A stretch of DNA of 64,000 nucleotides from Candidatus Omnitrophota bacterium (GCA_041651455.1 JBAZJG010000005.1:3882-67881), one strand, 5' to 3'; positions 1-61,027 are shown, numbered from the stretch's first letter. Notes: generated by a model from the letters alone, not told the origin. Translations and numbers: made by a program.

Positions 1-1184
1 TCAGGCCGAACACGCAGAGCGTTTTTGTCAGGGTGTTTGTCAAGGAGCCGGCTCCATCAAGCCGTATAGCATGGCGCGGGACAGGAACAGTGTATCCGCT
101 GGCGTTCCCGCCGCCCACAACGCCGCTTTACTCGGGCAGCAGCAGGCGGATCTATTACTACGATAAGGACGGGAATGACATCAGAAATGCGGATTTGAAC
201 GGAGTCATGGAACCGGAAGTCTATCCTGTGTATGATATAAACGGTAACCCGACATACATATATAACCCTTCGCGCCCGGCCAGCTGGACCCTTGAAAGCA
301 TACCGGCACCCGGAACCTACATCTACTGGCAACCGGAAGCGCCGTTCTGCGGGTGCTGGCTGTTCGCAAAAGGTGTCCAGGATGATACTTGGCCTACGGG
401 GGTCGGAGGGGAGACCTTCACGGCGAGGGGTTTCAAGTCGCTCGTAACGGACAGCCACGGCACGGGTGTTGTAAATACCGAGCCGAAGCCCCTCTATTGC
501 TTCGGTGATGTCAGCGAGATAAGGATGTATTCAAAAATGTATTACTCGCAATTCAATTATTCTGCGGATAAAACATTGGGTATGATTGGTTCAGATAACG
601 GGGCATCAACGTCTTATAGGGCCTGGATTAACGGAAGCATGGGGAGGCTTTCAACTTGGACCCCGACATATCCGGCCGCGAACACGACGATATTCAAATA
701 TGTCGCGAACAATCAGTATCTCGGCTGGGATTGGTCGGATTTCGACAGGGGCCAGTGCACTATTGGCCCTAGCGACTGGGACAAGGCAGGCGCTGTCACG
801 AAGATGCAGACGCACTGGGACAATTTACGCGGGATCCCTGAGAGCGGTTATATAACGTCGACTCCTTTCTACGCGGGATCTTTCGTGAAATGGGGGACGG
901 TTACGTGGTCTCCCCAGACCCAGCCAATGGCAAATACGGCGGTCACCATGTACCTAAGGAAGACATCTACGGCGCTCCCGTCCGCGGATGTCTCGTGGAC
1001 CGCGCTCGCGAACGGCGCGGCGATATCGGGGACGGACCCATGGATTCAGTATAAAGCGGTTCTCTCCACTACAAATATAAGCAGGGACCAGTATGCGGCA
1101 AGTTCAAGGACCCCCGTCCTTGCGGACGTAACGATAACGTATTTGCCCGCGATAAAAATAGAATATTGGAGGGAAGGGCTATGA
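1..1184 (+). CDS. Secreted/cell-surface protein, 5'-partial (C-terminal part of a larger protein running off the window start). It shares the C-terminal ~25-aa tail and a 'WGTxxW' module with the 1038-aa protein at 3437-6553.
   Basis: The frame is open to position 3. There is no signal peptide on the visible part. C-terminus is '...PVLADVTITYLPAIKIEYWREGL' versus '...PVIEDVSITYLPRTQVLYSREF' in ORF 3437-6553. The stop overlaps the next start (ATGA at 1181). Confidence 0.5.
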   Translation, partial: RPNTQSVFVRVFVKEPAPSSRIAWRGTGTVYPLAFPPPTTPLYSGSSRRIYYYDKDGNDIRNADLNGVMEPEVYPVYDINGNPTYIYNPSRPASWTLESIPAPGTYIYWQPEAPFCGCWLFAKGVQDDTWPTGVGGETFTARGFKSLVTDSHGTGVVNTEPKPLYCFGDVSEIRMYSKMYYSQFNYSADKTLGMIGSDNGASTSYRAWINGSMGRLSTWTPTYPAANTTIFKYVANNQYLGWDWSDFDRGQCTIGPSDWDKAGAVTKMQTHWDNLRGIPESGYITSTPFYAGSFVKWGTVTWSPQTQPMANTAVTMYLRKTSTALPSADVSWTALANGAAISGTDPWIQYKAVLSTTNISRDQYAASSRTPVLADVTITYLPAIKIEYWREGL

Positions 1185-2176
1185 CGACGAGGATATTTAT
1201 GGCCGTATTTATAGTTTTTTGCGTGGTGGCTTCGACACGTGCCGACACGGTAGTTCTGCAGAACGGAAGGACACTGGAAGGCAGGATACTTGAACAAACA
1301 GACGACTACATTGAGATAAAACTCGGGTCGGGCAAGATGAAGCTCGGTAAGAAAGACATAAAATCATTCGAGATTAAGGAGCCGGCCGAAGGTTATTCAA
1401 CAGTAGAACTTCCCGATATCGAAGTGATGCCCGAGGAAGCGGCGGTACGGAAGCCGGTTGCTGCGGATATCAAGTTGAAGGCGGAGTATACGAAGGGCAA
1501 GGTCTTCGTGAGCGGCACGAGCTCCTATCCGAACAACACGCCGCTGAGGGTCTATTTTATGCAGGGCGAGAGCGTCGTGATGGTCAAGGAATCCCGCGTC
1601 AAGAGAGGGGAGTTCTATATCGCGTTCGGGCCTTTCGAGAAGGAAATTATGGCGGGCAAGTATTCGGTGCGTGCAGAGGCGACCATAGACGGCTCTAAGG
1701 CCTATTCGGAGCCCTTTGCGCTGGTCATCGGAAGCGGAGAGCGCGTAAAGGTCGACGAGACAAGGGAGAAACAGTACCTGCAGGATAAAGCGCAGGAAGT
1801 GTCGGAACTTTATGCAGAGCTGAACAGGGCGTATGATAACGCAAAGGCCTCTTATGACGGGCGGAAATGGAAGGGGTGGTCGAAGGGATGGCTTGAAAAG
1901 GTAAATTCAGCGGCCGCGGAATTCAACGATGATTCCCGGAAGTACATAGCGTCCGTCCGTCCCGTTTCGCAGAGGAGGCTTCAGTTCTGTTTCCACCAAC
2001 TTCCTCTCCTGCTTCGTGCATATACGATAGAGTTCAATTCAAAGAGCGCAAAATCCCCCGGGCAGGTGCTTCCGGTGCAGGATGCGCAGGCGCTGAGGCA
2101 GTCCTTTGACAGGGCACTGTCCGAGACGGTACAGGACGTATCCGCCGTCGCCGTGGACTTGAACCATACGAGATAA
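1181..2176 (+). CDS. Secreted hypothetical protein with signal peptide. Contains an 'FGPFxKE..G.Y' beta-rich repeat module shared with the next ORF.
   Basis: An RBS-like gggaagggct precedes ATG 1181. N-terminus is 'MTTRIFMAVFIVFCVVASTRADTVVLQNGRTLEGRILEQTDDYIEIKL'. The motif 'YIAFGPFEKEIMAGKYSVRAEA' parallels 'ISFGPFGKELAPGTYTIEAEF' in ORF 2218-3432. Confidence 0.5.
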   Translation: MTTRIFMAVFIVFCVVASTRADTVVLQNGRTLEGRILEQTDDYIEIKLGSGKMKLGKKDIKSFEIKEPAEGYSTVELPDIEVMPEEAAVRKPVAADIKLKAEYTKGKVFVSGTSSYPNNTPLRVYFMQGESVVMVKESRVKRGEFYIAFGPFEKEIMAGKYSVRAEATIDGSKAYSEPFALVIGSGERVKVDETREKQYLQDKAQEVSELYAELNRAYDNAKASYDGRKWKGWSKGWLEKVNSAAAEFNDDSRKYIASVRPVSQRRLQFCFHQLPLLLRAYTIEFNSKSAKSPGQVLPVQDAQALRQSFDRALSETVQDVSAVAVDLNHTR

Positions 2177-2217
2177 TGTGATATATTTATATAGATAGAA
2201 ACGCATCTGACTGTCGG

Positions 2218-3432
2218 GTGGGGGAGTATTCTGTGGGCAAAACGACTTCGTATAAAGCCGTTAGGACTGTAGCATTTCTGACCGGCTTTTTTTGTTTTTT
2301 ATGCCTTGCCCGGGCGGAGGTATTGCCCTCGCCGAAGATCACGATACTGAAAGTCGAGTATAATGTATCAGAAGGGAAGCCTATTATAGAGGTTGAGGGC
2401 GAAACGGACCTTCCGGAAGGCGCAGTGCTTTCGGTCTCCATAAGGAATGGCCCGGAACTTACGGCTTACAAGGATATAAAAGCAGTGCCGGGCAGGTTCA
2501 GCGTAAAACTTGGCCCGCTGGACAAGGAACTTGACGGGGAATACAGCGTGCAGGTCATGCTGGGCCATGAACAGCCGCAGGAGATTATAGACCGCCTTAA
2601 AAGGGACTCTTCGGATCTGTCCCTCAAGAGCATACAGGCGGTATCGCTTTTCAAGGCGGTCGCCGTAAGCCGTGAAAAATCCCCTTACGGGATCGAGGTC
2701 TGGGCATACAACGAGCAGTACGGCAAGCAGGTAATAGTGCATGCGGACGGCAAGACAAGCCTGCCTGACGGCGCGGTCCTTAAGGTATACCTGAAGCGCA
2801 TAGATACTATTATTGTCTTCGGAGAATGCATGGTAGCCGAGGGCTCATTCAGTATTTCGTTCGGGCCTTTCGGAAAAGAGCTGGCGCCGGGGACGTATAC
2901 GATCGAAGCGGAGTTCTTCCCCGACCTGCAGAGGCCCGAGTTCAAGAAGGTTGCCAACAACGAGAAGATACCCGCAGCGAAAAGTTCCTGCGAGGCAGTG
3001 GTAGGAAAGGTCTCGGACGTCTCAAAGGCCGAGAATGCGGCGTGGCAGGAAATCAACTCGGCGGTGATGTCCATCGATGAATTATATTGGGAGTTGAAGG
3101 ATGTCTACGCTCTGTCACAAACGCATTTCGACCCTGCCGCCTGGGACGAATGGTCAGACAGGTGGCGTTTCCACCTTAAGAAGGTAAGCAATAGCCTGAA
3201 AGACGGCACGGGCAGGGACAAGTCCCTGTCGTTGTATCCGGAGGCCGAAAAGGGCCTGCCGCTGGCGGTAAAGTACCTTTCGGAGATATATGTTATAATG
3301 ACCGACACGCTGAAGAACCGCGCCCCGGCAAAAAAGGGGGAGCTCGAAAAGCGCTGTTATGCCCTGGAAAACGAACTGGTAAAGCTTATGAAAAAGATGA
3401 AAGCCGAACTGGCGAACTCGCCGAAGGTGTAA
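2218..3432 (+). CDS. Secreted hypothetical protein, paralogous module to the previous ORF. Alternative start at GTG 2233.
   Basis: Signal-peptide-like 'VAFLTGFFCFLCLARAEV'. Internal duplicated module: 'VKLGPLDKELDGEYSVQVML' and 'ISFGPFGKELAPGTYTIEAEF'. Confidence 0.5.
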   Translation: MGEYSVGKTTSYKAVRTVAFLTGFFCFLCLARAEVLPSPKITILKVEYNVSEGKPIIEVEGETDLPEGAVLSVSIRNGPELTAYKDIKAVPGRFSVKLGPLDKELDGEYSVQVMLGHEQPQEIIDRLKRDSSDLSLKSIQAVSLFKAVAVSREKSPYGIEVWAYNEQYGKQVIVHADGKTSLPDGAVLKVYLKRIDTIIVFGECMVAEGSFSISFGPFGKELAPGTYTIEAEFFPDLQRPEFKKVANNEKIPAAKSSCEAVVGKVSDVSKAENAAWQEINSAVMSIDELYWELKDVYALSQTHFDPAAWDEWSDRWRFHLKKVSNSLKDGTGRDKSLSLYPEAEKGLPLAVKYLSEIYVIMTDTLKNRAPAKKGELEKRCYALENELVKLMKKMKAELANSPKV

Positions 3433-3436
3433 GAGG

Positions 3437-6400
3437 ATGATAAAGAAGGGTGTGGCTATAGTATTTGCGCTCGGTGTCCTGGCGATGCTCTCATTGATCG
3501 GCTCGACGATGGTCCTGTCGGTCATAATGGAGCGGAAGGGGACCGTCAATTCCACCGCAAAGATAAAGGCGAGATATCTCGCCGATGCGGGTGTCGCGCG
3601 GGCTATCGCAGAGCTCAAATACGGCAATCAGGGTGCGCGCAATGATTCGGTCGATACGCTGGCGGAGACGATATTCGCGAGCGGACTGTCCGACAATACG
3701 TTGCTGAACGGCCGCGGCAGCTACAGCGTCACGGTTATCGATTGCGCGAGCCGCATAAACCTCAATGGCGGTAACTGCGACGCGCGCCTGTCTCTGATGC
3801 TCCAGAACCTCAGTACGGTCACTGCGGCGGGGCTTACGGTCGCGGAATGCGATACGATTGCCTCGAGGCGCCCATATGTCTGCATAGAAGAGGTGAAATC
3901 AAGGGCTGGTATATCAAGCACCAAATTCGCAAAAATTGAGAATTTTATCACGGTATTCGGTTATATAGACCCGAAGACCGTGGATCCGCAGAACCTCGCT
4001 TCTCCTTACGTGCTTCAGCCCCGTTCACCCGTCAATGTCAATACCGCTTCGGAGGAGGTCCTCAGGGCGGTGCTTATGGGCATTGAGGCGATCCATTCCT
4101 GCCCCAAGTGCGGCGGCGACGGGTACTACTTTGATGTTCTCGGGAACCATCTCGATTGCCCTTATTGTGATGGGTCGGGTTCGTCGGGCTCAATAACGGG
4201 CAACCTTGTTATAAACTCGACAGAAGCGCAGAACCTCGCACAGTACATTGTGACGCACAGGCCGTACTTGAACTGGGAATCTTTTTATGCTTCTATAAAG
4301 TCGTTCTTCAACAACGGGACGACGTCATCCGACCAGGAAGTGGTCATGGCGAACGCGAACCCGAATACCGGCTTCTCTTGGGTGCGCAACGATGCCTGGG
4401 CATCAAGGCTCGGCTATGTCGGCAAATACGTCATAGATATAAACAAGAACGGGACGGTCGAGGCATCGGATAGGGGCCTTACCAAGAGCACTACGGAATT
4501 TAGTTTCAACTCCGGGGGTTTCTACGAGATAAGGTCTACGGGCGTTTACAGGACGGCAGGCGGAGTTCCGCTGGCCCAGCGCGGTGTCGTGACGATTGTT
4601 AAGCTCTTCGGTACGATCAGGGCGACATCTCAGTCCGATTTCGACGGGGCGGGTAATACGAAGACCAATATCTCGACGTATCCGGAACCGGCAGGCGTGG
4701 GGGTTTCCGCGGCGGCTTATGACGGGCAGATAATGCTCTCGAGGATAAACCGCGCGACTCCGAGCTCGGGCAAATACTTCAGGGCAAATTATAATACTAC
4801 GTTGAATGCCGATGCAGGAGGAGGTAACACTGCCCTGCAGAACCCCCCGAATCCAGGGTCCGGGGTTATAGGCACGAAGCCGAACATAGGCAGTATTGCC
4901 TCATACAGCTCTAGGGGTGAGCTGGTGCCGGACGGGATGCTTGTGGATTCTTACGATGTCGTATGTCCGGACTACCTGCCCTCAAATAATATAACCTATA
5001 ATGCGGGGACGATGGAAGTATGGTTCAAGACGATGTGGAACAGCAACGACACGTTGATGTATAACGATAATTGCAAAGACCGCAAGGTCTATCGCCTCAT
5101 GAGCAGGGACGAGATAACCGGTGCCGGTACGAAGACATGGCCTTTCTCGACTTATGTCTTTTATTCTCAGAATTTCGGAGGAGTACAGAAGGGGTGTTCG
5201 ATAGGCGCCCAGGGTTACGGATACTACCAGAGCGGCAATTGGTCTTATATACCGAACACGCCGGAAGGTTCCGGGGATTATAAGATAGAGTTTTGCAGGA
5301 ATTATGTAGGCACCGAGGCATTGGGGATCTGGAATTCCGGCAAGTGGCGCCATTATGTCATTACATGGAAAGAGCCGCCGAACGGAGGCGCGTGTGACCC
5401 GGCGAATACCGGTAATTGGCCCGGTGTTTATCCGAATGACCTGAAGGTATACATGGACGGTACCGAGAGGAGCGCGGACCAGTATTTCCACCACTTTGAA
5501 TACCTTGACAATACCTCGGCGCAATACCTGATGCTCGGCCATGAATGGTGGGCGGGTTCGGGGTCGGTATCGCATTACGAACGCAACCAGCTGAACGGCG
5601 TAATAGGTTCGGTAAGGATATGGGATACACAGTTGTCCACGGCGCAGATATTGGCCGAATACGGCGCGGGGCTTTTTCAGAAGACCGGGACATATGTCTC
5701 GCCTACACTGGCCGTACCGGCCTCCGACGGCCCGACGGTAGAGTGGGGCACGGCAAGCTGGACAGGCATAGTGCCCAGCAGTGATGAATCGATAACCATG
5801 GGCGTGGATACGAATATCTCAGGGACTTATCACGGCAACTGGACATCTACCGGGACCGGCGAGGCTATTGTCGACGGATCCGGCAACCGGCTCAGGAGCG
5901 GCTCAATACGATTCAGGAGTATTTTAAGTTCCACTAAAGGCACGGCAGCCCAGCCGGACGCGGATATAATGCAGAATTATACCGATCCGACCTTCGAGAC
6001 GCATCCTCCGGGAGCCGGCGGGAATGAAGCGCCGCTTCCTCCGGGGTGGGGCGCCTCCGGAAGCTGGGGCACTTTCCTTTCCACTAAGGGAAGGCCTGTC
6101 CACGGAGGCACGTGGTGCGCCGGAAATTTCGGCAGCGGCAGGACTTTCATAAATATACCGGTCACCGGAGGCAAGTCCTACAAGTTCGTGGGTTACTCAT
6201 ACCTGCCGAGCGACCCGGACACCATAAATTGCTATTATACGATGCGGTTCAACGGGACGGGCGGATATAATAGCGGGGAGGTCTCCATAATGGGGACGCG
6301 GGACGCATGGCTCTATACCCGTATACCCACCAACGGAGGCTGGGTCACAGCGCCGTTGGATGCCACGCAATGTACTATCTCGCTGTGCTCGTGGCATACG

Positions 6401-6553
6401 GGGTCCGGATGGATAGCCGCAAGCTTCGACGACCTTAAGCTTATAGAGCAGGGCGCTACGGTCCTGGTCCCGCTTACGGATACGCCCGTCATAGAGGATG
6501 TCAGCATAACCTACCTGCCCAGGACGCAGGTGTTATACAGCAGGGAATTTTAA
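3437..6553 (+). CDS. Large (1038 aa) GspK/PilX-like minor pseudopilin-type protein with a C4 zinc ribbon and a LamG (concanavalin-like) domain. Candidate pilus/pseudopilus tip adhesin.
   Basis: N-terminus 'MIKKGVAIVFALGVLAMLSLIGSTMVLSV' resembles the GspK/PilX N-terminus. Zinc-ribbon motif 'CPKCGGDGYYFDVLGNHLDCPYCDGSG'. LamG hallmark 'GSVRIWDTQLSTAQILAEYGAG'. C-terminal tail conserved with ORF 1-1184. A terminator follows. Confidence 0.55.
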   Translation: MIKKGVAIVFALGVLAMLSLIGSTMVLSVIMERKGTVNSTAKIKARYLADAGVARAIAELKYGNQGARNDSVDTLAETIFASGLSDNTLLNGRGSYSVTVIDCASRINLNGGNCDARLSLMLQNLSTVTAAGLTVAECDTIASRRPYVCIEEVKSRAGISSTKFAKIENFITVFGYIDPKTVDPQNLASPYVLQPRSPVNVNTASEEVLRAVLMGIEAIHSCPKCGGDGYYFDVLGNHLDCPYCDGSGSSGSITGNLVINSTEAQNLAQYIVTHRPYLNWESFYASIKSFFNNGTTSSDQEVVMANANPNTGFSWVRNDAWASRLGYVGKYVIDINKNGTVEASDRGLTKSTTEFSFNSGGFYEIRSTGVYRTAGGVPLAQRGVVTIVKLFGTIRATSQSDFDGAGNTKTNISTYPEPAGVGVSAAAYDGQIMLSRINRATPSSGKYFRANYNTTLNADAGGGNTALQNPPNPGSGVIGTKPNIGSIASYSSRGELVPDGMLVDSYDVVCPDYLPSNNITYNAGTMEVWFKTMWNSNDTLMYNDNCKDRKVYRLMSRDEITGAGTKTWPFSTYVFYSQNFGGVQKGCSIGAQGYGYYQSGNWSYIPNTPEGSGDYKIEFCRNYVGTEALGIWNSGKWRHYVITWKEPPNGGACDPANTGNWPGVYPNDLKVYMDGTERSADQYFHHFEYLDNTSAQYLMLGHEWWAGSGSVSHYERNQLNGVIGSVRIWDTQLSTAQILAEYGAGLFQKTGTYVSPTLAVPASDGPTVEWGTASWTGIVPSSDESITMGVDTNISGTYHGNWTSTGTGEAIVDGSGNRLRSGSIRFRSILSSTKGTAAQPDADIMQNYTDPTFETHPPGAGGNEAPLPPGWGASGSWGTFLSTKGRPVHGGTWCAGNFGSGRTFINIPVTGGKSYKFVGYSYLPSDPDTINCYYTMRFNGTGGYNSGEVSIMGTRDAWLYTRIPTNGGWVTAPLDATQCTISLCSWHTGSGWIAASFDDLKLIEQGATVLVPLTDTPVIEDVSITYLPRTQVLYSREF

Positions 6554-6751: not shown

Positions 6752-6780
6752 TTGACAACATTTTTCGGCGGAGTTATATT
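6752..6780 (+). promoter_or_regulatory. Sigma70-type promoter for the EF-G-like gene.
   Basis: TTGACA (6752-6757), 17-nt spacer, TATATT (6775-6780). RBS aaggaagg lies before ATG 6837. Confidence 0.5.
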
Positions 6781-6836
6781 AACTGATACTTATCTGAAGA
6801 TGGACCTCACCAATAATATATTAAAGGAAGGCTTCC

Positions 6837-8885
6837 ATGGAAAGATACCCCGTTGAGAACATCCGCAACATAATCTTCGTGTCGCACTCCGGTTCGGGCA
6901 AGACCTCGTTGGTCGAGGCGTTGCTCTACGATGCCAAGATGACCACCCGTCTCGGGAAGATCTCGGAAGGCAACACGCATTCCGACTATAACTCCGACGA
7001 AATAGAGCGCAAGATATCCATTAGCTCGAAATTCCTGCACCTCATATGGAAGAATACGAGGGTCCACATACTCGATACGCCCGGTTACGCGGATTTCGTC
7101 GGCGACGTCATATCGCCGATGCGCGCAGCCGACGCGGCCGTGCTGCTGGTAGAGGCGGTCCACGGGATAGAGGTCGGCACCGAGCGCGTATGGGAATTCC
7201 TCGAGCAGAGGGGCCTTCCGCGAATAATATTCATAAACAAGCTGGACAAGGAGAACGCGAATTTCGAGAATACGCTGAACATGATACGCGAGAGGTTCGG
7301 CAGGCAGTGCGTGGCGCTGAACTCGCCTGTCGGCGAGCAGCAGTCGCTGAAATCGGTCGAGAGCGTGCTCGCGAAGGGCGGGAAACTGAAAGAGGACCTG
7401 CTCGATGCAGTCGTGGAGACCGACGATACGCTTACCGAGAAATACCTCGAAGGCAAGGAGCTTTCCGCGGACGAGATAACGAAAGCCCTTAAGTCCGCGT
7501 GCGTATCGGGCAAGATAATACCGGTATTCTGCGGTTCCGCCGTCCAGAACATCGGCGTCCAGGAACTGCTCGACGGCATCACGGGCCTTTTGCCTTCGCC
7601 GGCGGACCGTCCCGCGGTCGAGGGGATAAACCCAAAGACGAAGGAGGCCGTTACGAGAAAACCGTCGGAATCCGAACCGTTCTCGGCTTTCATATTCAAG
7701 GACATATTCGACCCGTATGTAGGGCACCTAACGCTCTTCAGGGTCTACTCCGGCTCGGTGGAGTCGAACACGGGTTTCTATAACTCGTCGAGGGACCTGA
7801 AAGAGAGGATAGGCCAGATATACATCCTGCAGGGCAAGGAACAGGTCCCGGTGCAGAAGGCCGGCGCGGGCGATATCGCGGCGGTCGCGAAGCTCAAGGA
7901 TACGCACAATAACGATACCGTATGCGATGAGAAGAACCCGGTTGTCTTCGAGCCGACCGCCTATCCCGAGCCGTGCATATCGAGCTCGGTAAAGCCGAAG
8001 ACGCGCCAGGACGAAGAGAAGATCATGGGCACGCTCACGCGCCTGGCTTCCGAGGACCCGACGTTCAGGATAAGCCGCGACGAGCAGACGCACGAACTGG
8101 TGATATCCGGCATGGGGGACCTGCATCTCGATGTGATGCTCGACAGGATGAAGAAGCGTTTCGGCGTCGACGTAGAAGTCGGCGTCCCGAAGGTCCCGTA
8201 CAAAGAGACGATAAAGAAGGCCGTAAAGATACAGGGAAAGTTCAAGAGGCAGTCCGGCGGCCGCGGACAGTACGGCGACTGCTGGCTTGAGCTCGAACCC
8301 CTGCCCCACGGGCAGCAGTTCGAGTTCGTGGACAAGGTCGTAGGCGGCGCGATACCGAGGCAGTTCATACCTTCCGTCGAGAAGGGCGTAAAGGAAGCGA
8401 TGACGAAGGGCTTCCTCGCGGGTTATCCTGTCGTCGACGTCAGGGTCACGGTGTTCGACGGCTCGTTCCACGAGGTCGACTCGTCTGATATGGCTTTCCA
8501 GATAGCCGGCTCCATGGCGTTCAAGAACGGCCAGGAGCAGGCGAGCCCGGTCCTGCTCGAGCCGATAATGAGCGTGGAGATAATCGTGCCGAACGATTAC
8601 CTCGGGCAGATAACGGGCGATATCAACTCCCGCCGCGGCAGGATCATGGGCATCGAGGGGAGGGGCAAGCAGGAGTACGTGAAGGCGTCCATACCCCTGT
8701 CCGAGATGTTCAAATACGCCACGGAACTGCGCTCGATGACGGGCGGCCGCGGCTCATATTCGATGAAATTCGACCATTACGAGGAAGTCCCGGCCAAGAT
8801 CACCCAGATCATAGTCGCCAACATGAAGAAGGCGGCTGAGGAAGCTGCCGGGGGCCACGCGGGGCACGGCCACGAGCATAAGTAA
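6837..8885 (+). CDS. Elongation factor G family GTPase paralog (EF-G-like). Switch-II catalytic His is replaced by Tyr. His-rich C-terminal tail.
   Basis: G1 'SHSGSGKTS'. G3 'LDTPGYADF' (canonical is DTPGHVDF). G4 'NKLD'. G5 'CGSAVQNIGVQELLD'. EF-G domain IV/V-like C-terminal half. Tail 'GGHAGHGHEHK'. Confidence 0.8.
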   Translation: MERYPVENIRNIIFVSHSGSGKTSLVEALLYDAKMTTRLGKISEGNTHSDYNSDEIERKISISSKFLHLIWKNTRVHILDTPGYADFVGDVISPMRAADAAVLLVEAVHGIEVGTERVWEFLEQRGLPRIIFINKLDKENANFENTLNMIRERFGRQCVALNSPVGEQQSLKSVESVLAKGGKLKEDLLDAVVETDDTLTEKYLEGKELSADEITKALKSACVSGKIIPVFCGSAVQNIGVQELLDGITGLLPSPADRPAVEGINPKTKEAVTRKPSESEPFSAFIFKDIFDPYVGHLTLFRVYSGSVESNTGFYNSSRDLKERIGQIYILQGKEQVPVQKAGAGDIAAVAKLKDTHNNDTVCDEKNPVVFEPTAYPEPCISSSVKPKTRQDEEKIMGTLTRLASEDPTFRISRDEQTHELVISGMGDLHLDVMLDRMKKRFGVDVEVGVPKVPYKETIKKAVKIQGKFKRQSGGRGQYGDCWLELEPLPHGQQFEFVDKVVGGAIPRQFIPSVEKGVKEAMTKGFLAGYPVVDVRVTVFDGSFHEVDSSDMAFQIAGSMAFKNGQEQASPVLLEPIMSVEIIVPNDYLGQITGDINSRRGRIMGIEGRGKQEYVKASIPLSEMFKYATELRSMTGGRGSYSMKFDHYEEVPAKITQIIVANMKKAAEEAAGGHAGHGHEHK

Positions 8886-8889
8886 ACTA

Positions 8890-8919
8890 TTGCCAATACC
8901 CTCCTAAAAGTGGTATAAT
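8890..8919 (+). promoter_or_regulatory. Sigma70-type promoter upstream of yebC.
   Basis: TTGCCA (8890-8895), 18-nt spacer, TATAAT (8914-8919). Confidence 0.45.
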
Positions 8920-8967: not shown

Positions 8968-9717
8968 ATGTCCGGACATTCAAAATGGAAGACACAAAAG
9001 AACAAGAAGGCCGCTGCTGACGCGGTAAAGGGCAGGGCGTTCACGAAGGCGACAAAAGAGATCACCGTAGCCGCGAAAGACGGCGGCGGCGACCCCGATA
9101 CGAACCCGAGGCTGCGTTTCGCGCTGGCAAAAGCCAGGGAAGTGAACATGCCTAAGGATAACATCGAAAAGGCGATAAAAAAGGGCACCGGCGAGCTTCC
9201 CGGCGTCGTTTACGAGACGATCTACTACGAAGTATACGGGCCCGGCGGCGTGGCTATCATAGTCGAGGCGCTTACCGACAACAAGAACAGGGCTTCGGCG
9301 GAAATAAAGAACATCCTTTCGCGCAAGGGCGGCAGCATGGCGGGGACGGGCTCGGTATCGCGCCTGTTCCACAAGAAAGGCCTTATCGTCGTCGAGAAGT
9401 CGAAGATAGACGAGGATAAGCTCATGGATATCGTCCTCAACGCCGGCGCCGAGGACATGGCGACCGAGGATACCGTTTACGAGATAACGACGGACCCGAA
9501 GGATTTCGAAAAGGTAAAGAAGGCGCTTGACGACAACAAGGTCGAATGCCAGAGCGCGGAAGTCACGACGCTGCCGACGATGACGGTGAAGGTGGCGGGA
9601 GCCGCCGCGAAACAGGTGCTCGCGCTCGTCGAGATGCTGGAAGATTACGAGGACGTCCAGAACGTCTACGCGAATTTCGATATTCCCGACGACATACTGG
9701 AGCAGCCCAAGGACTGA
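8968..9717 (+). CDS. yebC: YebC/PmpR family DNA-binding transcriptional regulator.
   Basis: 'MSGHSKWKTQKNKKAAADAVKGRAFTKATKEITVAAKDGGGDPDTNPRLRFALAKAREVNMPKDNIEKAI' is the canonical YebC N-terminus. Confidence 0.9.
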   Translation: MSGHSKWKTQKNKKAAADAVKGRAFTKATKEITVAAKDGGGDPDTNPRLRFALAKAREVNMPKDNIEKAIKKGTGELPGVVYETIYYEVYGPGGVAIIVEALTDNKNRASAEIKNILSRKGGSMAGTGSVSRLFHKKGLIVVEKSKIDEDKLMDIVLNAGAEDMATEDTVYEITTDPKDFEKVKKALDDNKVECQSAEVTTLPTMTVKVAGAAAKQVLALVEMLEDYEDVQNVYANFDIPDDILEQPKD

Positions 9718-9719
9718 TA

Positions 9720-10241
9720 ATGAGGATACTGGGTATCGACCCAGGGTTATGCATAACGGGTTACGGGCTCATAGAAGCCGGCCCGCGCGGCCTCAGACTG
9801 ATAGAGGCGGGCGTGGTAAGGACGTCCGCAAAAGACGATATAGAAGCAAGGCTCGCAAGGATATATGAGGGCCTCGAAGGGCTCGTAAAGGAGCACAGGC
9901 CCGAAGTCTTCGTGCTCGAGCAGCTCTATTCGCATTACAAGCACCCGATGACGGCGATACTTATGGGGCACGCGAGGGGCGTCATATGCCTGCTCGCGAA
10001 GCGGTCGGGCGCTAAGCTCGTAGGGTATCCCGCGACCCGCATCAAGAAGGCTTTGACGGGCGCAGGGCATGCAAGCAAGAACCAGATACAGCGCATGATA
10101 CAGGGCGTCTTCGGCATGGCAGCGATGCCGGAACCGCCCGACATTTCGGACGCGCTGGCACTCGCGGTCGCCCATGCATACATGGCGCAGAAAGAGCCCG
10201 TCACTAAATTAACCCTGAAGGTCAACCGGGGGAACAGATGA
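9720..10241 (+). CDS. ruvC: Holliday junction resolvase RuvC.
   Basis: 'MRILGIDPGLCITGYGLIE...VFVLEQLYSHYKHPMTAILMGHARGVI'. The true ATG is at 9720; the track ORF starts further upstream. Confidence 0.9.
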   Translation: MRILGIDPGLCITGYGLIEAGPRGLRLIEAGVVRTSAKDDIEARLARIYEGLEGLVKEHRPEVFVLEQLYSHYKHPMTAILMGHARGVICLLAKRSGAKLVGYPATRIKKALTGAGHASKNQIQRMIQGVFGMAAMPEPPDISDALALAVAHAYMAQKEPVTKLTLKVNRGNR

Positions 10242-35985: not shown

Positions 35986-38900
35986 ATGCTAAGCCAAAAT
36001 TGTAAGAAATATATTATATCATTATCCATCGCGCTCGCGATGTCGTTTCCGTCGATGTCGTGCCCCGGGGAATTAGATTACAATAAGCTTTCGCTTGAAG
36101 CCGCGCTGAACAGGATGTATGAAGTAGACCCCGAAATACAGATAAGCAGACTCGCATGCGATGCGTCCCTCCTCGAGATAAAAGCAAGGAAACTCGATAC
36201 ATTCATGCCGAAGCTCAGCGTCGGCGTCAGTATAGTCAAGCCGGTCGATATCTTCACGAAACTTGACCAGCAAAAAGAGATGTTCTTTGAACAGCAGGTT
36301 ATCATAGAATTCGCCGTGACCTCAAACAGCTTCAACCATATCCTTAAGGACAGGAAAGGGTACGAAGCTAGCATGCTCGAATTGAAGCAGGCGGTTTCCG
36401 AAAGGAGCCGTGAGCTCATCACCGTATATTACGCCGTCGCAAGGGCCCAGGAGAATTACAGGTCCAGCTGCGATAACATCGAGACAGTCGAGAAGGTCCT
36501 GAAGATGGTCGAAAACAGCAATGAATATACGGACGTCGAAAAACTCGAGATAAGGAACTATCTTGCCGTGGTCACGGAAGAGAAGTTAGGCGCGCTGAAT
36601 ACGCTCATCAATACGAGAAGAGACCTCCGCGGGCTTCTCGGTCTGGAGAACAGGGAAGATATCGATATAACCGTCGAGGAACTGCCTGATAATATCAACA
36701 ATGACATCGCCTTCTATGAAAACCCGTTGATAAGGCCGGCGGATTACACCCTCGACATATATAAGAAAAGGGGTGAGGCTGCGGACGTGGCCTCCCGGAT
36801 CAGCGCGTCTCCCTTATTGAAATTTTCTTCCGCGACGATCCTCGGCATCGCCGAGGGCAGGTTCACGAAACTCCAGAAGAAAGTGATAACTGATACGGGA
36901 GTGGAGTTGCATATAACCGACTTTGGCTATACCGGAGGCCTCAATGATGTAAGCAAGATTAATTCGCAGATAGCGAGGTTGGAGGTATTGAAAGCAGAAG
37001 AGGACCTTGAGTATTCGGATTTAATAGCGAACGGCAAACTGGCCGAACTAAGCGGCCTAATAGATAATTACAGGGAATACATAACGAAGACGGAAGACAT
37101 GTTGAGGATGTTCAGGGAACGCCTCTCCTTGCCGGTCATCGAGATAATAAGGATGAACGATAATCTCTATAAGGCCAAGTATGCGATGCAACAGGCGCTC
37201 GTCGATTATACGGTCATGCTCTCGAACCTTAAAGGTGTCGAGCTGAAACCCGAACAGACCAGCCCTCAATACCAGGATATGAGCTTGGAAGACCTGCTTG
37301 CGAGGGGCGAGAGGAGTGACATCCTGACCGTCAAACAGATATCCGAGAAGAAGATGAGGATGGAAAACGTCAGGATCAACGCGACAAAGGCCGGATATTT
37401 CCCGAAGATCACCGGTGCGGCCATACTTGAGAACGCGAACATAGACGGCGTGCCGTCGCAGGCTACGAGGGCTTACGTTGCGCTTGAAGGGCAGCTCTTT
37501 AACTTCAAGAACGGGCAGGCCATCAGGGCAGCGAAGGCCAGCATGGAAGAAATCAGGTACGAGGGCGCCGCGCTGCAGAACGTGGTCGCGGATGAGATAA
37601 TAAAGAACTACCTGTTCATATTAAGGAGCAAGAATACCTTAAAATGGCTGAACGAGATCAAGGGGATAAAAGACGACATAATACGCGATATGCTGGAAAA
37701 TATGGAAGGCAAGGGCCCCAAATATAGTAATTCGGATATACTGCCGCTGGTCCTGCAGCAGATGGAGCTGGACAGGATGATGGCGGATGCCGAGTTCTCG
37801 CTGGCGGTCGTCGAGTATAGCCTCAAGAAATGGACCGGCATACCGCTCAACGAGACGATAAGCGTAAAGGAGCTCCCGGCGTTCGGGGAGGACGAAGGGC
37901 TCTCAGGGTTCATGGCGCTGATCCGGTCCAAGGTGGCGCCGTATTTCGACGGTAAGGCGCCGGTAAAACAAGCCCTGAGCGCCGTCGAAAAGAACAGGGC
38001 GGAAGAGGCGCGGGCCGTCGCGTATGATGGGGCGCTGCTCCAGGTAAAATGCGAGACGAAGGGCATGGAATATAAGGGATGGCATGATCCCGACAGGCAG
38101 GTGTCTTTCAGCGTCTCCGTGCCGTGGGGCGACCGCAGGGAAAAGATAGCCAGGTCTGAGGCGGCGAGGACCCGCATCAAGTCGGAGATCGAGTATTTGA
38201 AGAGCATGGATGCTTATGAAAAAGAGAGGTTATCCGTCAAGACCTCCTACGATTCATCGAAAGCGCTCCTTGAAGACCTGCGCAGCAAGAAGGAGAATAT
38301 GGAATCGCAGTACAGGATAACCGAGGAACTTTACCGGTTCGGCGGCCGGACAAAGAAGCAGATGGTTGATTCCAAGCTGGATTTCATAGTAGCGCAGATG
38401 AGCTATGAGGAAGCCGTCCTTGACAACTATTACCACAATGCGAGGGAGCTGCTGGTAGTGGAGAAAGATGCGGAACCCGAAGGCAGCGAAAGGATATTGC
38501 TGGCCGGATTGCAGGAAGCGATAGACCTTGCCATGCAGAACAGCCGCGAAATAAGGAAATACGAGGAGAGCCTCAAGCTCGAGAAGGAAACATTGGATTA
38601 TTACAAGACGGTGAGGATAAAGGGCGATATCGGAGGGGATTCCTATATAATAGATAACAAGGGCTGGAATGAGACAAAGAGGGTCAAGACCGCGGGGATC
38701 GTCGCGACCGCCGACATTGACCTCGTGAACAAATATATGGTGAAAGTCCAGCAGCGCAGGATCGAGCTTGCCGAAAAGGACCTCGAGCAGGCGAAGTTCG
38801 ACCTGACCCTGAAGGTCGCGGATGCCTACTCGGGCTACCTCGGTTCGCTCGCGGAGACCTCGGAAGTCCGCAAGGAATACGAGAGGCAGAAGACGGTCCT

Positions 38901-39795
38901 GGCGGAAATGGAAGAGCTTTTCAAGGCGAAAGCGATAGCGCATGTGGACCTGCTGAAGCAGAGGGAGTTCGTAGAGAGCCTTCTGCAGAAGTACATCGAC
39001 ACCAACAGGTATACCGAAGGGCACAGGAACAGCCTCGGCATTGCCGTCGGAGGCCTCGACCCGAGGTTTTCGGTCGTGAACACCGAGGTTTACGACAAGT
39101 CCGCCCGGCGCGTCGCGCTTACGGAAGATTTCGAGATCAAGCAGAGGCTGTTGGACGAGCTTACATCCGCGAGGCAGGCGCTCCAGGGACTGCTGCAGGA
39201 TGATCTGCTCAAGCGCGCGGAGATCAAACTCGACATGGCCAGGCTTGATACCCAAGCTATATCAAAACAGGTAAAGACGCTCGCGGTCAACCTCGAGTAC
39301 ATATACCTTACGGATTTCATGGGACTAATAATGAGGGATGAAGCCGCCTTCTCGCGTTATGACAACATGTCGGAGTTTTTCTCGCTGAACTCCATAGACC
39401 AGATATTCAATCCCGCCACCGGGACTAAGGCGAGGATTGCGGCGATAAGCGAGAAGGTCGCGGCATTAAGGTCGAAGTCATATACGAAAAACGTTGTCCA
39501 GGACGCGTTGAGGAGGTTTACCGATTACCAGGTGGCCGTGGCCGATTACGCCAACTACGAGAAGAACGAAACGGTGCTGGAAAACGAGATGGCCGAGAAG
39601 ATGCGTATGGAAGAGGCGGCAGGGAACACGGCCCTGATCAGGCAGAGGGAGCTAAAAGAGACGATACTTAACAACAAGATAAAGAAGATACAGGCATTCT
39701 ACAGGATGATGAAATTTATGAACGAACTGGACCGTTATCTGATAAGATATACTTCAAAAGGCATAGAATCATACGTAACATTCGTCACAAAATGA
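35986..39795 (+). CDS. Unusually long (1269 aa) TolC-like outer-membrane channel protein (OEP family repeats plus extensions).
   Basis: Signal peptide. 'LSLEAALNRMYEVDPEIQISRLA' is a TolC-type N-terminal motif. Recurrent OEP-type coiled-coil/beta segments ('AIRAAKASMEEIRYEGAALQNVVADEIIKNYLFIL', 'EELYRFGGRTKKQMVDSKLDFIVAQMSYEEAVLDNYY'). The stop overlaps the next start (ATGA). Confidence 0.55.
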   Translation: MLSQNCKKYIISLSIALAMSFPSMSCPGELDYNKLSLEAALNRMYEVDPEIQISRLACDASLLEIKARKLDTFMPKLSVGVSIVKPVDIFTKLDQQKEMFFEQQVIIEFAVTSNSFNHILKDRKGYEASMLELKQAVSERSRELITVYYAVARAQENYRSSCDNIETVEKVLKMVENSNEYTDVEKLEIRNYLAVVTEEKLGALNTLINTRRDLRGLLGLENREDIDITVEELPDNINNDIAFYENPLIRPADYTLDIYKKRGEAADVASRISASPLLKFSSATILGIAEGRFTKLQKKVITDTGVELHITDFGYTGGLNDVSKINSQIARLEVLKAEEDLEYSDLIANGKLAELSGLIDNYREYITKTEDMLRMFRERLSLPVIEIIRMNDNLYKAKYAMQQALVDYTVMLSNLKGVELKPEQTSPQYQDMSLEDLLARGERSDILTVKQISEKKMRMENVRINATKAGYFPKITGAAILENANIDGVPSQATRAYVALEGQLFNFKNGQAIRAAKASMEEIRYEGAALQNVVADEIIKNYLFILRSKNTLKWLNEIKGIKDDIIRDMLENMEGKGPKYSNSDILPLVLQQMELDRMMADAEFSLAVVEYSLKKWTGIPLNETISVKELPAFGEDEGLSGFMALIRSKVAPYFDGKAPVKQALSAVEKNRAEEARAVAYDGALLQVKCETKGMEYKGWHDPDRQVSFSVSVPWGDRREKIARSEAARTRIKSEIEYLKSMDAYEKERLSVKTSYDSSKALLEDLRSKKENMESQYRITEELYRFGGRTKKQMVDSKLDFIVAQMSYEEAVLDNYYHNARELLVVEKDAEPEGSERILLAGLQEAIDLAMQNSREIRKYEESLKLEKETLDYYKTVRIKGDIGGDSYIIDNKGWNETKRVKTAGIVATADIDLVNKYMVKVQQRRIELAEKDLEQAKFDLTLKVADAYSGYLGSLAETSEVRKEYERQKTVLAEMEELFKAKAIAHVDLLKQREFVESLLQKYIDTNRYTEGHRNSLGIAVGGLDPRFSVVNTEVYDKSARRVALTEDFEIKQRLLDELTSARQALQGLLQDDLLKRAEIKLDMARLDTQAISKQVKTLAVNLEYIYLTDFMGLIMRDEAAFSRYDNMSEFFSLNSIDQIFNPATGTKARIAAISEKVAALRSKSYTKNVVQDALRRFTDYQVAVADYANYEKNETVLENEMAEKMRMEEAAGNTALIRQRELKETILNNKIKKIQAFYRMMKFMNELDRYLIRYTSKGIESYVTFVTK

Positions 39796-51040: not shown

Positions 51041-52000
51041 TTGAAATTATCGAAGATCTATGATCTCGTGGTAAGGGAAGGTATTGCCGCCGACCCGCGC
51101 GGAAAAGATGCGGTCGCGAAAGTCCTCTCGAAAGCCGGTAGGGATTACGAGGCGCTGAAGGAGAAGGATAAGCAGTATTTCGACAAGGAGAGGCTGCGGA
51201 ACCCTTACGCGGACACGAGGATACTTTACGGCAGCGGCTCTACGGAGGTCAAGCGTATAATCGTAGGCGTCGATATGGAAGTGGGCGAGGTCGTCCTGGC
51301 CGACAGGCTCAGGGAGAAAGGGATGAAGATAGACCTCATACTGGCCCACCACCCGGAAGGCCGCGCATGGGCGAATTTTTATGAGGTGATGAATATGCAG
51401 CCGGACATATGGGCGAAGTTCGGCGTACCGATAAATGTCGCGGAAGGGATAATGAAGGACAGGGTAAAAGAGGTCGAGCGCAGGGTCATGCCGGCCAACC
51501 ATACGCGCACGGTCGACGCCGCGAGATTGCTCGACATCCCCATGATGTGCGCGCATACGGTGGCGGACAACCATGTCGTCTCGTATTTGCAGAAGCTCAT
51601 GGACTCGAAAGCGCCGGACACGGTTGCCGAGGTCATAGACATACTGAAAGAGATACCCGAATACCAGCAAGCGATGAAGGTCAACGCCGGGCCGCGCGTA
51701 TTTTTCGGGGATCCGAAGAACAGGGCGGGCAAGGTCTTCGTGGACATGACCGGAGGCACCGAAGGCCCGACCAACATGTTCGAGAAGCTCGAAGACGCCG
51801 GGGTCGGCACGATCGTCGCGATGCACCTCGGAGAGGACCACCTGAAGAACGCGCAGAAAGGCCACCTGAACGTGGTCATCGCAGGGCACATATCGAGCGA
51901 TAACCTCGGCCTGAACCTGCTCTTCGACAAGCTCGCGAAAGAGGAAAAGCTTGAGTTCATCGGTTGTTCGGGCTTCGAAAGGGTAAGCCGCGGCAAATAA
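51041..52000 (+). CDS. Nif3-like dinuclear metal centre protein (YqfO/YbgI family), tentative.
   Basis: 'LILAHHPEG' and 'VVIAGHISSD' are Nif3-type His motifs. It sits next to dnaG-rpoD as in Firmicutes. Confidence 0.45.
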   Translation: MKLSKIYDLVVREGIAADPRGKDAVAKVLSKAGRDYEALKEKDKQYFDKERLRNPYADTRILYGSGSTEVKRIIVGVDMEVGEVVLADRLREKGMKIDLILAHHPEGRAWANFYEVMNMQPDIWAKFGVPINVAEGIMKDRVKEVERRVMPANHTRTVDAARLLDIPMMCAHTVADNHVVSYLQKLMDSKAPDTVAEVIDILKEIPEYQQAMKVNAGPRVFFGDPKNRAGKVFVDMTGGTEGPTNMFEKLEDAGVGTIVAMHLGEDHLKNAQKGHLNVVIAGHISSDNLGLNLLFDKLAKEEKLEFIGCSGFERVSRGK

Positions 52001-58942: not shown

Positions 58943-59019
58943 GGGCCCATAGCTCAGTTGGTTAGAGCAGCTGACTCATAATCAGCGGGTCATAGGTTCA
59001 AGTCCTATTGGGCCCACCA
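58943..59019 (+). tRNA. tRNA-Met (anticodon CAT; elongator-type, or possibly tRNA-Ile2).
   Basis: Cloverleaf parses as GGGCCCA/TGGGCCC acceptor stem, D-loop AGTTGGTTA, anticodon loop CTCATAA, T-loop TTCAAGT, 3' CCA encoded. G1-C72 pairs, so it is not initiator-like. Confidence 0.85.
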
Positions 59020-59027
59020 AATTTTTC

Positions 59028-59104
59028 GGGCGATTGGCTCAGTTGGTTAGAGCGCCACATTCACATTGTGGAGGTCAAAGGTTCGAATCCTTTATCGCCC
59101 ACCA
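59028..59104 (+). tRNA. tRNA-Val (anticodon CAC).
   Basis: GGGCGAT/ATCGCCC acceptor stem, anticodon loop TTCACAT, T-loop TTCGAAT, CCA encoded. It lies 8 nt after tRNA-Met. Confidence 0.85.
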
Positions 59105-60267: not shown

Positions 60268-60281
60268 ATCACAGGATTTGG

Positions 60282-60606
60282 GCAGGCCGGATGGTCGCTT
60301 CCAGCGATGGAGGAGGAAAGTCCGAGCTCCAAAGGACAGCGTAGCGGGTAACGCCCGTCTGCCGTAAGGCAAGGATCAGAGCCACAGTGACGAACAATCC
60401 CATGCGGGAGGCCAGACGGCCTTAACGCCGGGACGAAGTGAAACGCGGCAATCTCTACGCGGAGCAAGGCCAAATAGGCGCATCTCCTGGGGCTGTCCGC
60501 CCCAAGCCCGCAAGGGCGGATGCGCGGGTTGGCTGCTTGAGCCCCGGAGCAATCCGGGGTCTAGATGGATGATCATCGAACACAAAACTCGGCTTATAGG
60601 CCTGCC
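60282..60606 (+). ncRNA. rnpB: RNase P RNA (bacterial type A).
   Basis: Conserved P4/CR-I 'GGAGGAAAGTCCGAGCTCC', 3' CR-V 'ACAAAACTCGGCTTATAG'. P1 pairing GGCAGGCC...GGCCTGCC. Confidence 0.8.
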
Positions 60607-60630
60607 CAAAATAATTTTCAGGAGAAGGAA

Positions 60631-61002: not shown

Positions 61003-61027
61003 ATCTACGGGAGACGCGGCACGGCAT

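Follow-up and report, generated by a model that had tools for sequence, protein, structure and literature searches.

Is a protein of the elongation factor G (EF-G) family that lacks the catalytic histidine of switch II a new kind of translation factor, or does it belong to something already known? This question is raised by an open reading frame (ORF) at positions 6837-8885 (+) of a 64,000-nucleotide stretch of DNA from Candidatus Omnitrophota bacterium (GCA_041651455.1 JBAZJG010000005.1:3882-67881), the whole of which is called the window in what follows. The ORF is intact, starts with ATG and codes for 682 amino acids followed by a stop codon. The comparisons given below indicate that the gene very probably is a paralog of EF-G belonging to the EFG II or EF-G2 class, and that the absence of the catalytic His is the normal hallmark of this known and widespread class and not the sign of a new kind of factor. 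Taken as a whole, the observations are best explained, with a probability of about 0.6, by an EFG II paralog acting as a slow auxiliary translocase beside a canonical EF-G.

According to Pfam, all five EF-G domains are present in the 682-residue protein and encoded on the (+) strand, namely GTP_EFTU (residues 7-253), domain II (EF-G_D2, residues 281-364, 7677..7928), domain III (EFG_III, residues 377-449, 7965..8183), domain IV (EFG_IV, residues 451-569, 8187..8543) with its tip loops GGRGQYG (from residue 474) and HEVDSS (from residue 545), and domain V (EFG_C, residues 572-657, 8550..8807). An AlphaFold2 model (predicted local distance difference test, pLDDT, 87.6) has the extended shape of ribosome-bound EF-G, and Foldseek comparisons with this model gave template modelling (TM) scores of 0.84-0.88 to ribosome-bound EF-G, 0.85 to PDB entry 1WDT and 0.87 to 8DMF, the ribosome-bound EF-G2 of Bacteroides thetaiotaomicron. 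In an HMMER alignment to the EF-G of Thermus thermophilus, Tyr84 (codon TAC, 7086-7088) of the switch II (G3) motif DTPGYADF (7074-7097, +) falls exactly on the catalytic His of DTPGHVDF. A preceding sequence-only reading, which had described a full-length EF-G paralog with Tyr at the catalytic position, an atypical G1 motif SHSGSGKTS and intact G4 (NKLD; 7236-7247, +) and G5 (GSA; 7533-7541, +) motifs, thus held up in all these respects, and the coordinates of the motifs were verified.

When 5.8 billion protein clusters were searched, an identical protein was recovered from a metagenome-assembled genome (MAG) of Candidatus Omnitrophota, and altogether there were more than 120 homolog clusters, defined at 90% identity, that are 56-100% identical to it and whose source names are nearly all Omnitrophota or Omnitrophica. 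Among the best 120 of these, Tyr occupies the catalytic-His position in 120 of 120, so that an isolated sequencing error, which the sequence-only reading had named as the observation that might undo it, does not account for the substitution; the exact motif DTPGYADF is found in 112, and xHxGxGKTS and RK(I/V)(S/T)I are common to these homologs. In an alignment of 43 sequences covering the homolog diversity, H17, G21, K22, R58, P82, G83, Y84, D86 and F87 of the nucleotide pocket are invariant, as are G474, G475, G477, Q478, Y479, G480, H545, V547, D548, S549 and S550 at the tip of domain IV, while Lys59 is conserved in at least 90% of the sequences; across the orthologs, most of domains III-V is invariant or nearly so. 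Because the residues of both the pocket and the domain IV tip do not vary in this alignment, the nucleotide pocket is under purifying selection, and the protein is functional and not a decaying copy. A sequencing error or a pseudogene was accordingly ruled out by the uniform presence of Tyr among the homologs, the intact ORF and the invariant residues that flank Tyr84.

The identity of the class follows from a small number of diagnostic positions. According to Margus, Remm & Tenson (2011), P-loop position 25 is a Leu that is 99% conserved in EFG II and a Thr in EFG I, and the first P-loop position (16) is Gly in 86% of EFG II and Ala in EFG I; according to Atkinson (2015), the P-loop Asp, a ligand of the monovalent cation, is changed to Gly in EFGII, and the Gly at the cation site of switch I is not conserved. 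The Omnitrophota paralog carries Gly19 and Lys59 at the two latter positions, and it also has Leu25 (GKTSL). In an alignment of 192 sequences, made up of 17 from Omnitrophota, 164 other non-canonical ones and 11 canonical ones (having the His as well as the Asp), Leu25 is present in 17/17 Omnitrophota and 141/164 other non-canonical sequences, and the canonical EF-Gs have Thr or Cys. When only the segment from switch II to G4 was searched, the top match in the PDB was 1WDT, which reads LLDAPGYGDFVGEIRGALEAADAALVAVSAEAGVQVGTERAWTVAERLGLPRMVVVTKLDK; its switch II is DAPGYGDFVG, and Tyr, DFVG, AADAA, VGTER(A/V)W and GLPR are the stretches that it has in common with the paralog. The B. thetaiotaomicron EF-G2 (PDB 7UVP) reads GSSGSGKTTL and DCPGSDDFVG, with Ser at the His position. 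For Mycobacterium smegmatis EF-G2, Tyr98 in place of the catalytic His88 is stated in a 2026 preprint that deals with mycobacterial EF-Gs.

The same assignment is obtained from the tree. Neighbour-joining on distances from the 192 sequences (688 columns, 200 bootstraps) splits the 11 canonical sequences from all others in 200/200 bootstraps and places the proteins from Omnitrophota among the non-canonical ones. The sequence-only reading was right to set the protein apart as a non-His paralog, although the signature is the one known from EFG II and EF-G2, which had gone unrecognised there. The G domain is 34% identical to that of T. thermophilus EF-G as compared to 41-45% for the non-His paralogs of other phyla, whereas domains II-V are about equidistant from both (50% versus 48-56%). 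Amongst the NCBIfam models, NF009381 matches best with 929 bits, as it also does for all other non-His proteins scanned. Omnitrophota hence contribute a new and rather conservative branch to a class that has been described before and for which structures are known.

Other members of the translational GTPases were considered and rejected. A ribosomal protection protein (Tet), RF3, BipA or LepA can be dismissed on NCBIfam scores that are far below the respective cut-offs; for the tet_protect families the paralog reaches 366 against 775 (NF012153), 241 against 1100 (NF033148) and, for Tet(M), 206 against 1420.

With respect to the distribution of residues at the catalytic position in the class at large, an exhaustive HMMER search of 1.84 billion representatives of 50% clusters gave, by motif match among the best 150, His in 7, Tyr in 65 and Phe in 29. 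In the 192-sequence set there are 106 sequences with Tyr, 35 with Phe and 13 with His, the latter comprising 11 that also have the P-loop Asp and 2 with EFG II-like P-loops; Gly stands at the P-loop Asp position in 122 and Leu at position 25 in 159. The EF-G2/EFG II class thus tolerates many residues at the catalytic-His position, with aromatic ones dominating. Tyr or Phe account together for 141/192 sequences, and Asp, Ser, Asn and Leu occur in other branches. Homologs from Poribacteria have Ala (DTPGAEDF or DTPGADDF), and loci of this type, from Poribacteria and further MAGs, are L039, L041-L043, L046-L049, L051, L053, L055, L057, L058, L060, L070, L077 and L079 of the locus survey described below. 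A second, more divergent group of Tyr-type proteins at 50-54% identity, consisting of L026 (Omnitrophota MAG JAHKAP01) and the proteins P0121 and P0127, is placed beside the principal clade of Omnitrophota by neighbour-joining; the P-loops read GHAQSGKTSL in L026 and P0121 and GHAHCGKTSL in P0127, and the protein of L026, which is 645 residues long, has an even larger deletion in the G' subdomain and no yebC neighbour.

What such a protein might do can be approached from the residues that it has kept and those that it has lost. Retained are the residues for the binding of GTP and Mg, i.e., the P-loop Lys and Thr, the switch II Asp-x-x-Gly, NKxD for guanine specificity and SA. In the 181 non-canonical sequences (164 plus 17 from Omnitrophota), the P-loop Lys is kept in 180 and the Thr in 177, the switch II Asp and Gly are essentially invariant, and the Asn and Asp of G4 are mostly kept. 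Replaced are four residues implicated in the activation of hydrolysis: in the P-loop (G1; 6882-6908, or 6882..6911 with Leu25, +) the canonical Asp is changed to Gly and the Ile of the hydrophobic gate to Ser, in switch I (G2; ERKISIS, 7005-7025, +), where the Arg is kept and a Thr is changed to Ser, the cation-site Gly is Lys, and in switch II Tyr84 takes the place of the catalytic His. Domains II-V, which bind the ribosome, are near-canonical by sequence with an invariant domain IV tip, and the equivalent of T. thermophilus His573 is His, and the Gly of domain IV loop 1 is kept, in 181/181 non-canonical sequences each.

Since the binding residues and the domain IV tip are kept, the four activating residues are replaced and the model is extended like ribosome-bound EF-G, the paralog would be expected to bind GTP and, in the GTP form, the ribosomal factor site as EF-G does, to insert domain IV into the decoding centre, and to promote slow translocation with little or no canonical ribosome-activated hydrolysis of GTP. 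It would thereby serve as an auxiliary or alternative translocase beside the canonical His-type EF-G of an S12-S7-EF-G-EF-Tu operon elsewhere in the genome. To this proposed mechanism, an auxiliary translocase whose GTPase is reduced or uncoupled, we would give even chances; on the GTPase activity the characterised relatives disagree. According to the 2026 mycobacterial preprint, the H88Y exchange in M. smegmatis EF-G1 nearly abolishes the GTPase, and M. smegmatis EF-G2 has minimal ribosome-dependent GTPase, does not function in ribosome recycling and plays a regulatory role under stress. For the EF-G-2 of T. thermophilus, with the same Tyr, intrinsic as well as ribosome-dependent GTPase and translocation have been reported. 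The EF-G2 of B. thetaiotaomicron is described as a slow or weak translocase; carbon starvation strongly induces it, and colonisation of the gut depends on it. The sequence-only reading had predicted a factor that binds GTP but is impaired in its hydrolysis, possibly a regulator or a hibernation or rescue factor rather than a translocase. The first part of this is plausible in view of the H88Y effect and the M. smegmatis protein but insecure given the active T. thermophilus enzyme, while the second part finds no support, in view of the invariant GGRGQYG and HEVDSS loops and of the translocation described for the T. thermophilus and B. thetaiotaomicron members.

A number of observations weigh against an EFG II paralog that translocates slowly, with little hydrolysis, beside a canonical EF-G. 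As for the class, the first P-loop residue is Ser16 and not the Gly of the EFG II majority; at this position the Omnitrophota sequences have Ser in 13, Ala in 2 and Gly in 2, and the other non-canonical ones Gly in 116, Ser in 29 and Ala in 19, which makes Gly16 a majority feature of the class and not an absolute one. The cut-off of TIGR00484 is passed (734.4 versus 659.4), as compared to scores of 1149 and 1190 for the two canonical EF-Gs scanned and of 606-781 for the other non-His paralogs, whereas the cut-offs of the NCBI equivalog models for EF-G2 are missed (626 versus 890 for NF009377, and 569 versus 1000 for NF058620, the model of the Bacteroides EF-G2). However, the latter two are likewise not reached by the other non-His paralogs scanned, from Bacillota, Poribacteria, Actinomycetota, Bacteroidota and further Omnitrophota, and hence these models cover only narrow sub-groups of the class. 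For a member of EFG II, the paralog has also changed unusually little, its mean tree distance to the canonical EF-Gs being 1.01 in comparison to 1.18 for other non-His proteins. As for the activity, T. thermophilus EF-G-2 hydrolyses GTP with the same Tyr, so the GTPase status cannot be read from the sequence, and in the paralog, as in this protein, neither the P-loop His nor the switch I Arg has been lost, unlike in the GTPase-deficient proteins of M. smegmatis and B. thetaiotaomicron. Furthermore, the near-consensus promoter discussed below suggests constitutive rather than stress-induced expression. Finally, the case for a canonical fusA in addition to the paralog is built on a phylum-level preprint and on the rule of Margus 2011 and not on the same genome.

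Because of the shared P-loop His and switch I Arg, a retained GTPase is a serious rival. The paralog would then be a fully GTPase-competent alternative EF-G in the manner of T. thermophilus EF-G-2, that is, a second translocase with different kinetics or regulation, in which ribosome-dependent GTP hydrolysis is carried out by the Tyr-type site, perhaps with the switch I Lys standing in for the monovalent cation. T. thermophilus EF-G-2, reported to be GTPase-active and translocating, has the same DxPGYxDF; the P-loop His and the switch I Arg are present in 17/17 Omnitrophota sequences each, together with NKxD of G4 and SA of G5; and both GTPase-deficient relatives are devoid of the P-loop His, reading GPSGG in M. 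smegmatis EF-G2, where the switch I Arg is lost or unconserved as well, and GSSGSGK in B. thetaiotaomicron EF-G2. Lys59 at the site of the cation-binding Gly is found in 15/17 Omnitrophota and 73/164 other non-canonical sequences, and as a side hypothesis it may replace the monovalent cation and so make hydrolysis independent of it. On the other hand, the paralog has lost about 25 residues of the G' subdomain when compared to canonical EF-G, and G' is the contact site of L7/L12 during GTPase stimulation. Moreover, four activation residues are changed together and not one, and the exchange of His for Tyr in a canonical EF-G by itself nearly abolishes the GTPase. On balance, full GTPase competence seems rather unlikely.

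The slow auxiliary translocase presupposes a canonical EF-G in the same cells. In the window, tblastn with the EF-G, S12, S7 and EF-Tu of T. thermophilus found no second EF-G, rpsL, rpsG or tuf, so that the sequence-only reading was correct in stating that no fusA of a str operon is contained in it, and in the Omnitrophota loci, too, the 10 kb around the paralog are free of a canonical fusA. In a survey with one genome for each GTDB species, 80 loci were obtained. In these, all copies flanked by rpsL-rpsG upstream and tuf downstream read AHIDAGKTT, RGITI and DTPGHVDF; these are the Bacilli loci L059, L061-L064, L066-L069, L071-L075 and L080-L084, some of them cut by the contig end. The copies outside the str operon, which come from Omnitrophota, Bacillota, Dehalococcoidales, Actinomycetota, Poribacteria, KSB1, Eisenbacteria and Bacteroidota, have without exception, wherever the motif is readable, xH(G/S)GxGKT(S/T)L, and their catalytic His is replaced by Tyr, Phe or Ala; none of the Omnitrophota loci examined adjoins rpsG or tuf. 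A 2026 preprint (bioRxiv 10.64898/2026.06.07.730766) in which 229 Omnitrophota genomes, complete or of high quality, are analysed gives the order S12, S7, EF-G, EF-Tu, S10 and L3 as contiguous on several chromosomes, and as this operon is a different locus from that of the paralog, its EF-G must be another gene. A Nature Microbiology 2023 paper on Omnitrophota genomics and a metaproteomics preprint make no mention of an Omnitrophota EF-G. According to Margus 2011, genomes with a single EFG always carry EFG I.

In addition, the paralog evolves too fast for a primary EF-G: inside a single phylum its sequences have diverged (identities as low as 56%, mean distance 0.57) about as far as canonical EF-Gs have between phyla (54-65% identity, mean distance 0.64). 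Its rate of change is about that of the neighbouring yebC and ruvA. With regard to the His-type representatives with the best scores in the protein library, P0134 is from Dictyoglomus, and P0243, P0170 and P0271 all lie inside S12-S7-EF-G-EF-Tu operons; the contigs of these three are compositionally unlike the window (tetranucleotide r of 0.06-0.38 versus at least 0.87 for the closest relatives) and provide no evidence of belonging to the same genome.

The opposite view, that the paralog is the only or the principal EF-G and that translation in Omnitrophota is run by a translocase without the catalytic His, can draw on the very absence of a canonical fusA from the 64-kb window and from the 10 kb around each Omnitrophota copy, on the TIGR00484 equivalog cut-off that is passed, on the retention of the gene across the phylum in more than 120 clusters at 90% identity, on an evolution slower than that of typical EFG II proteins, and on the strong and conserved promoter. 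However, the S12-S7-EF-G-EF-Tu operons are reported on complete Omnitrophota chromosomes and the paralog never stands at that locus, single-EFG genomes are EFG I genomes, and both the divergence within the phylum and the rate of change relative to yebC and ruvA speak against a primary factor, which makes this view most improbable; equally improbable is the absence of a canonical EF-G from the lineage of the window. In a related form of this view, the Tyr-type factor would carry most of the translocation in the very small, energy-limited cells of Omnitrophota, and all of it in some lineages, without canonical His-activated hydrolysis. Hints in this direction are the promoter, the retention across the phylum, the slow evolution for an EFG II protein, the fully conserved domain IV tip and the fact that no canonical fusA was found for this genome. 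If this were so, it would say something about the lowest cost at which energy-starved nanobacteria can translate, but the present evidence makes it very unlikely.

As to the expression of the auxiliary translocase, the gene is preceded by a sigma-70-type promoter-like element, TTGACA-17 nt-TATATT at 6752-6780 (+), which agrees with the consensus at 11/12 positions and which the sequence-only reading had already taken for a promoter of its own. Of the 10 orthologous loci aligned, 9 have kept it, at protein identities as low as 56%, amid intergenic DNA that is otherwise not conserved: it is present in the window and in L007, L008, L009, L010, L012 and L015 and slightly variant in L017 and L018, and the upstream stretch of L011 failed to align to it. 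Scanning for this type of promoter is reasonable here because the rpoD gene for a primary sigma-70 lies in the window itself, as part of a dnaG-rpoD pair (51964-53772 and 53769-55364, both +) coding for primase and for a sigma factor with regions 1.1 to 4. The paralog thus seems to be transcribed from a conserved near-consensus promoter of its own, which suggests substantial and possibly constitutive expression and not a tightly stress-gated switch. No Rfam match for a regulatory RNA was found in the upstream intergenic region of 283 nucleotides, and no intrinsic terminator was predicted around the gene.

The promoter also bears on a further alternative, in which the paralog does not translocate at all but, in the manner of M. 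smegmatis EF-G2, binds the ribosome in a regulatory role; it would sit in the factor-binding site under stress and modulate translation or silence it, in the way of a hibernation or rescue factor. The two proteins share substitutions at the catalytic positions, and the M. smegmatis protein with its Tyr98 has minimal GTPase, no recycling activity and a stress-regulatory role. Yet the conserved near-consensus promoter does not look stress-specific, and M. smegmatis EF-G2 is far more degenerate, having lost the P-loop His, all G2 residues and the Asn of G4, all of which the paralog keeps. In addition, the invariant tip loops of domain IV, domains III-V, most of which is invariant or nearly so, and the 50% identity of domains II-V to T. 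thermophilus EF-G represent more constraint than a passive blocker of the site would seem to need. A regulator of this kind is therefore judged quite unlikely.

Between the -10 box and the ATG, the window (6781-6836) as well as L007 and L008 have a leader segment of about 40 nucleotides with the Shine-Dalgarno sequence AAGGAAGG, which in the window is read at 6824..6831 (+), 5 nucleotides upstream of the ATG. This segment is missing from L009 (6062-6162), L010, L012 and L015, where the ATG follows only 11-12 nucleotides past the -10 hexamer, e.g., TATATT-GACTAGTACTT-ATGGAT. Because of this short distance, a leaderless or nearly leaderless mRNA is implied in these four loci.

Downstream of the paralog, the gene order is conserved. 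In 19/19 orthologous loci of the Omnitrophota clade (L001-L018 and L037), yebC follows directly, and ruvC-ruvA-ruvB come next wherever the contig reaches that far. A non-His EF-G paralog together with yebC, and with ruvA further downstream, is also seen outside Omnitrophota in L040, a Clostridia MAG, and in the Eisenbacteria MAGs L078 and L081, and this adjacency may reflect either an old linkage or repeated co-location. In the window, the gap of 82 nucleotides between the stop codon of the paralog and yebC contains a second near-consensus site at 8890-8919 (+), TTGCCA-18-TATAAT with an extended -10 TG and 11/12 matching positions, and no terminator is predicted in this gap; to judge from this site, yebC-ruvCAB may be transcribed separately from the paralog. 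Counted from the ATG at 9546, the mechanically called ruvC ORF (9546-10241, +) has 231 amino acids, and about 170 nucleotides of it lie within the end of yebC; in gene calls on related contigs RuvC has 173 amino acids and starts just past yebC, the true start of ruvC in the window being probably near 9720.

Two further parts of the protein differ between lineages. The first is the His-rich C-terminal tail GGHAGHGHEHK (8850-8882, +), which is predicted to be disordered, with pLDDT values below 50 for residues 672-682. The sequence-only reading had listed this tail among the features of the protein, and it is indeed present in the window, but it is not conserved in the family: at least three His among the last 20 residues are found in only 19/120 orthologs, all of them amongst P0001-P0024 with at least 76% identity, and more distant Omnitrophota orthologs have K/E-rich tails instead. 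The tail was hence rejected as a family feature and is a shallow feature of one lineage. The second is the G' deletion of about 25 residues, recognised in the alignment to canonical EF-G, which is common to other Omnitrophota orthologs with variable extent and is not seen in the non-His paralogs of Poribacteria and Actinomycetota that were aligned.

The remainder of the window contains several features apart from the paralog. Upstream of it, four consecutive large ORFs of 383, 336, 404 and 1038 amino acids occupy 33-6553 (+) and have no Pfam match; on the extended contig (L085:1-9717) three small N_methyl (pseudopilin-type) genes and a gene for a 961-residue protein containing PA14 lie ahead of them, which suggests that the upstream genes might form an operon for a pilus or a type II secretion-like surface structure. 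This upstream gene set varies among close relatives. Further downstream, an ORF of 3075 amino acids (39792-49019, +) comes directly after one of 1269 amino acids (35986-39795, +) with TolC-like OEP repeats; very long proteins are described as an Omnitrophota trait in the genome preprint cited above (bioRxiv 10.64898/2026.06.07.730766). Finally, there are two adjacent tRNA genes (58943-59016 and 59028-59101, both +) and a bacterial class A RNase P RNA (60279-60612, +; 215 bits), and several ORFs called mechanically across the latter, among them 60376-61536 (-) and 60565-61002 (+), are therefore probably spurious.

What is gained from the locus is in the main a clarification of annotation, as public records name this protein and hundreds of its relatives 'elongation factor G', which is due to the TIGR00484 cut-off being passed. 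Non-His members of EF-G2/EFG II differ greatly from canonical EF-G, with slow translocation, stress-specific roles and, in the case of the M. smegmatis member, a weak or absent ribosome-dependent GTPase. The survey of the nearest 150 cluster representatives indicates that the class keeps the GTP-binding residues and the domain IV tip and systematically replaces four activation residues, namely the P-loop Asp, the gate Ile, the switch I Gly and the switch II His, the latter by Tyr, Phe, Asp, Ala or Ser. As a conservative member of this class, the Omnitrophota branch has the P-loop His and the switch I Arg as in the GTPase-active Thermus protein, and it is therefore a reasonable candidate for testing which of the substitutions abolish hydrolysis.

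Compared with the known systems, the paralog is closest in its diagnostic residues to EFG II, the prototype of which is T. thermophilus EF-G-2 (PDB 1WDT/2DY1). It shares with this class the five-domain fold (TM 0.85 to 1WDT), DxPGYxDFVG, AADAA, VGTER(A/V)W, GLPR, Leu25, the Gly at the P-loop Asp position, the P-loop His and the location outside the str operon. It differs in its first P-loop residue, which is Ser instead of the Gly of EFG II, in its canonical NKLD where G4 of 1WDT is TKLD, in the additional G' deletion of about 25 residues and in a score below the NCBI EF-G2 equivalog cut-off. In particular, its domains II-V are much nearer to canonical EF-G, as it scores 625 bits against T. 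thermophilus EF-G and 473 bits against 1WDT.

With B. thetaiotaomicron EF-G2 (fusA2, BT2167; PDB 7UVP/8DMF), a slow or weak translocase that coexists with an essential canonical fusA, the paralog has in common the non-His switch II, a P-loop end of the GKTTL type, DFVG and the fold (TM 0.87 to 8DMF). However, the B. thetaiotaomicron protein is 718 amino acids long, has Ser and not Tyr at the catalytic position and has lost the P-loop His (GSSGSGK), and its gene is induced 238-fold by carbon limitation via BT4338, in contrast to the near-consensus sigma-70-type promoter of the paralog, at which no regulator site was recognised. M. smegmatis EF-G2 (MSMEG_6535), which coexists with the canonical EF-G1, shares the Tyr at the catalytic-His position and a non-canonical P-loop, but the P-loop His (GPSGG), all key switch I residues and the Asn of G4 are lost there, whereas the Omnitrophota protein keeps the P-loop His, the Arg and an Ile of switch I and NKLD.

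The Tet(M)/Tet(O) ribosomal protection proteins are ribosome-binding GTPases of the same EF-G superfamily with the same order of domains. They are known to keep the catalytic His; the scores of the paralog for these families are far under the cut-offs, and the window offers no resistance-gene context. Canonical EF-G (fusA, EFG I), finally, agrees with the paralog in the five domains, in the identical tip loops of domain IV and in domains II-V, which are 50% identical to those of T. thermophilus EF-G, but it reads AHIDAGKTT, RGITI and DTPGH where the paralog reads SHSGSGKTS, RKISI and DTPGY, and it sits in the rpsL-rpsG-fusA-tuf operon, outside of which the paralog is found.

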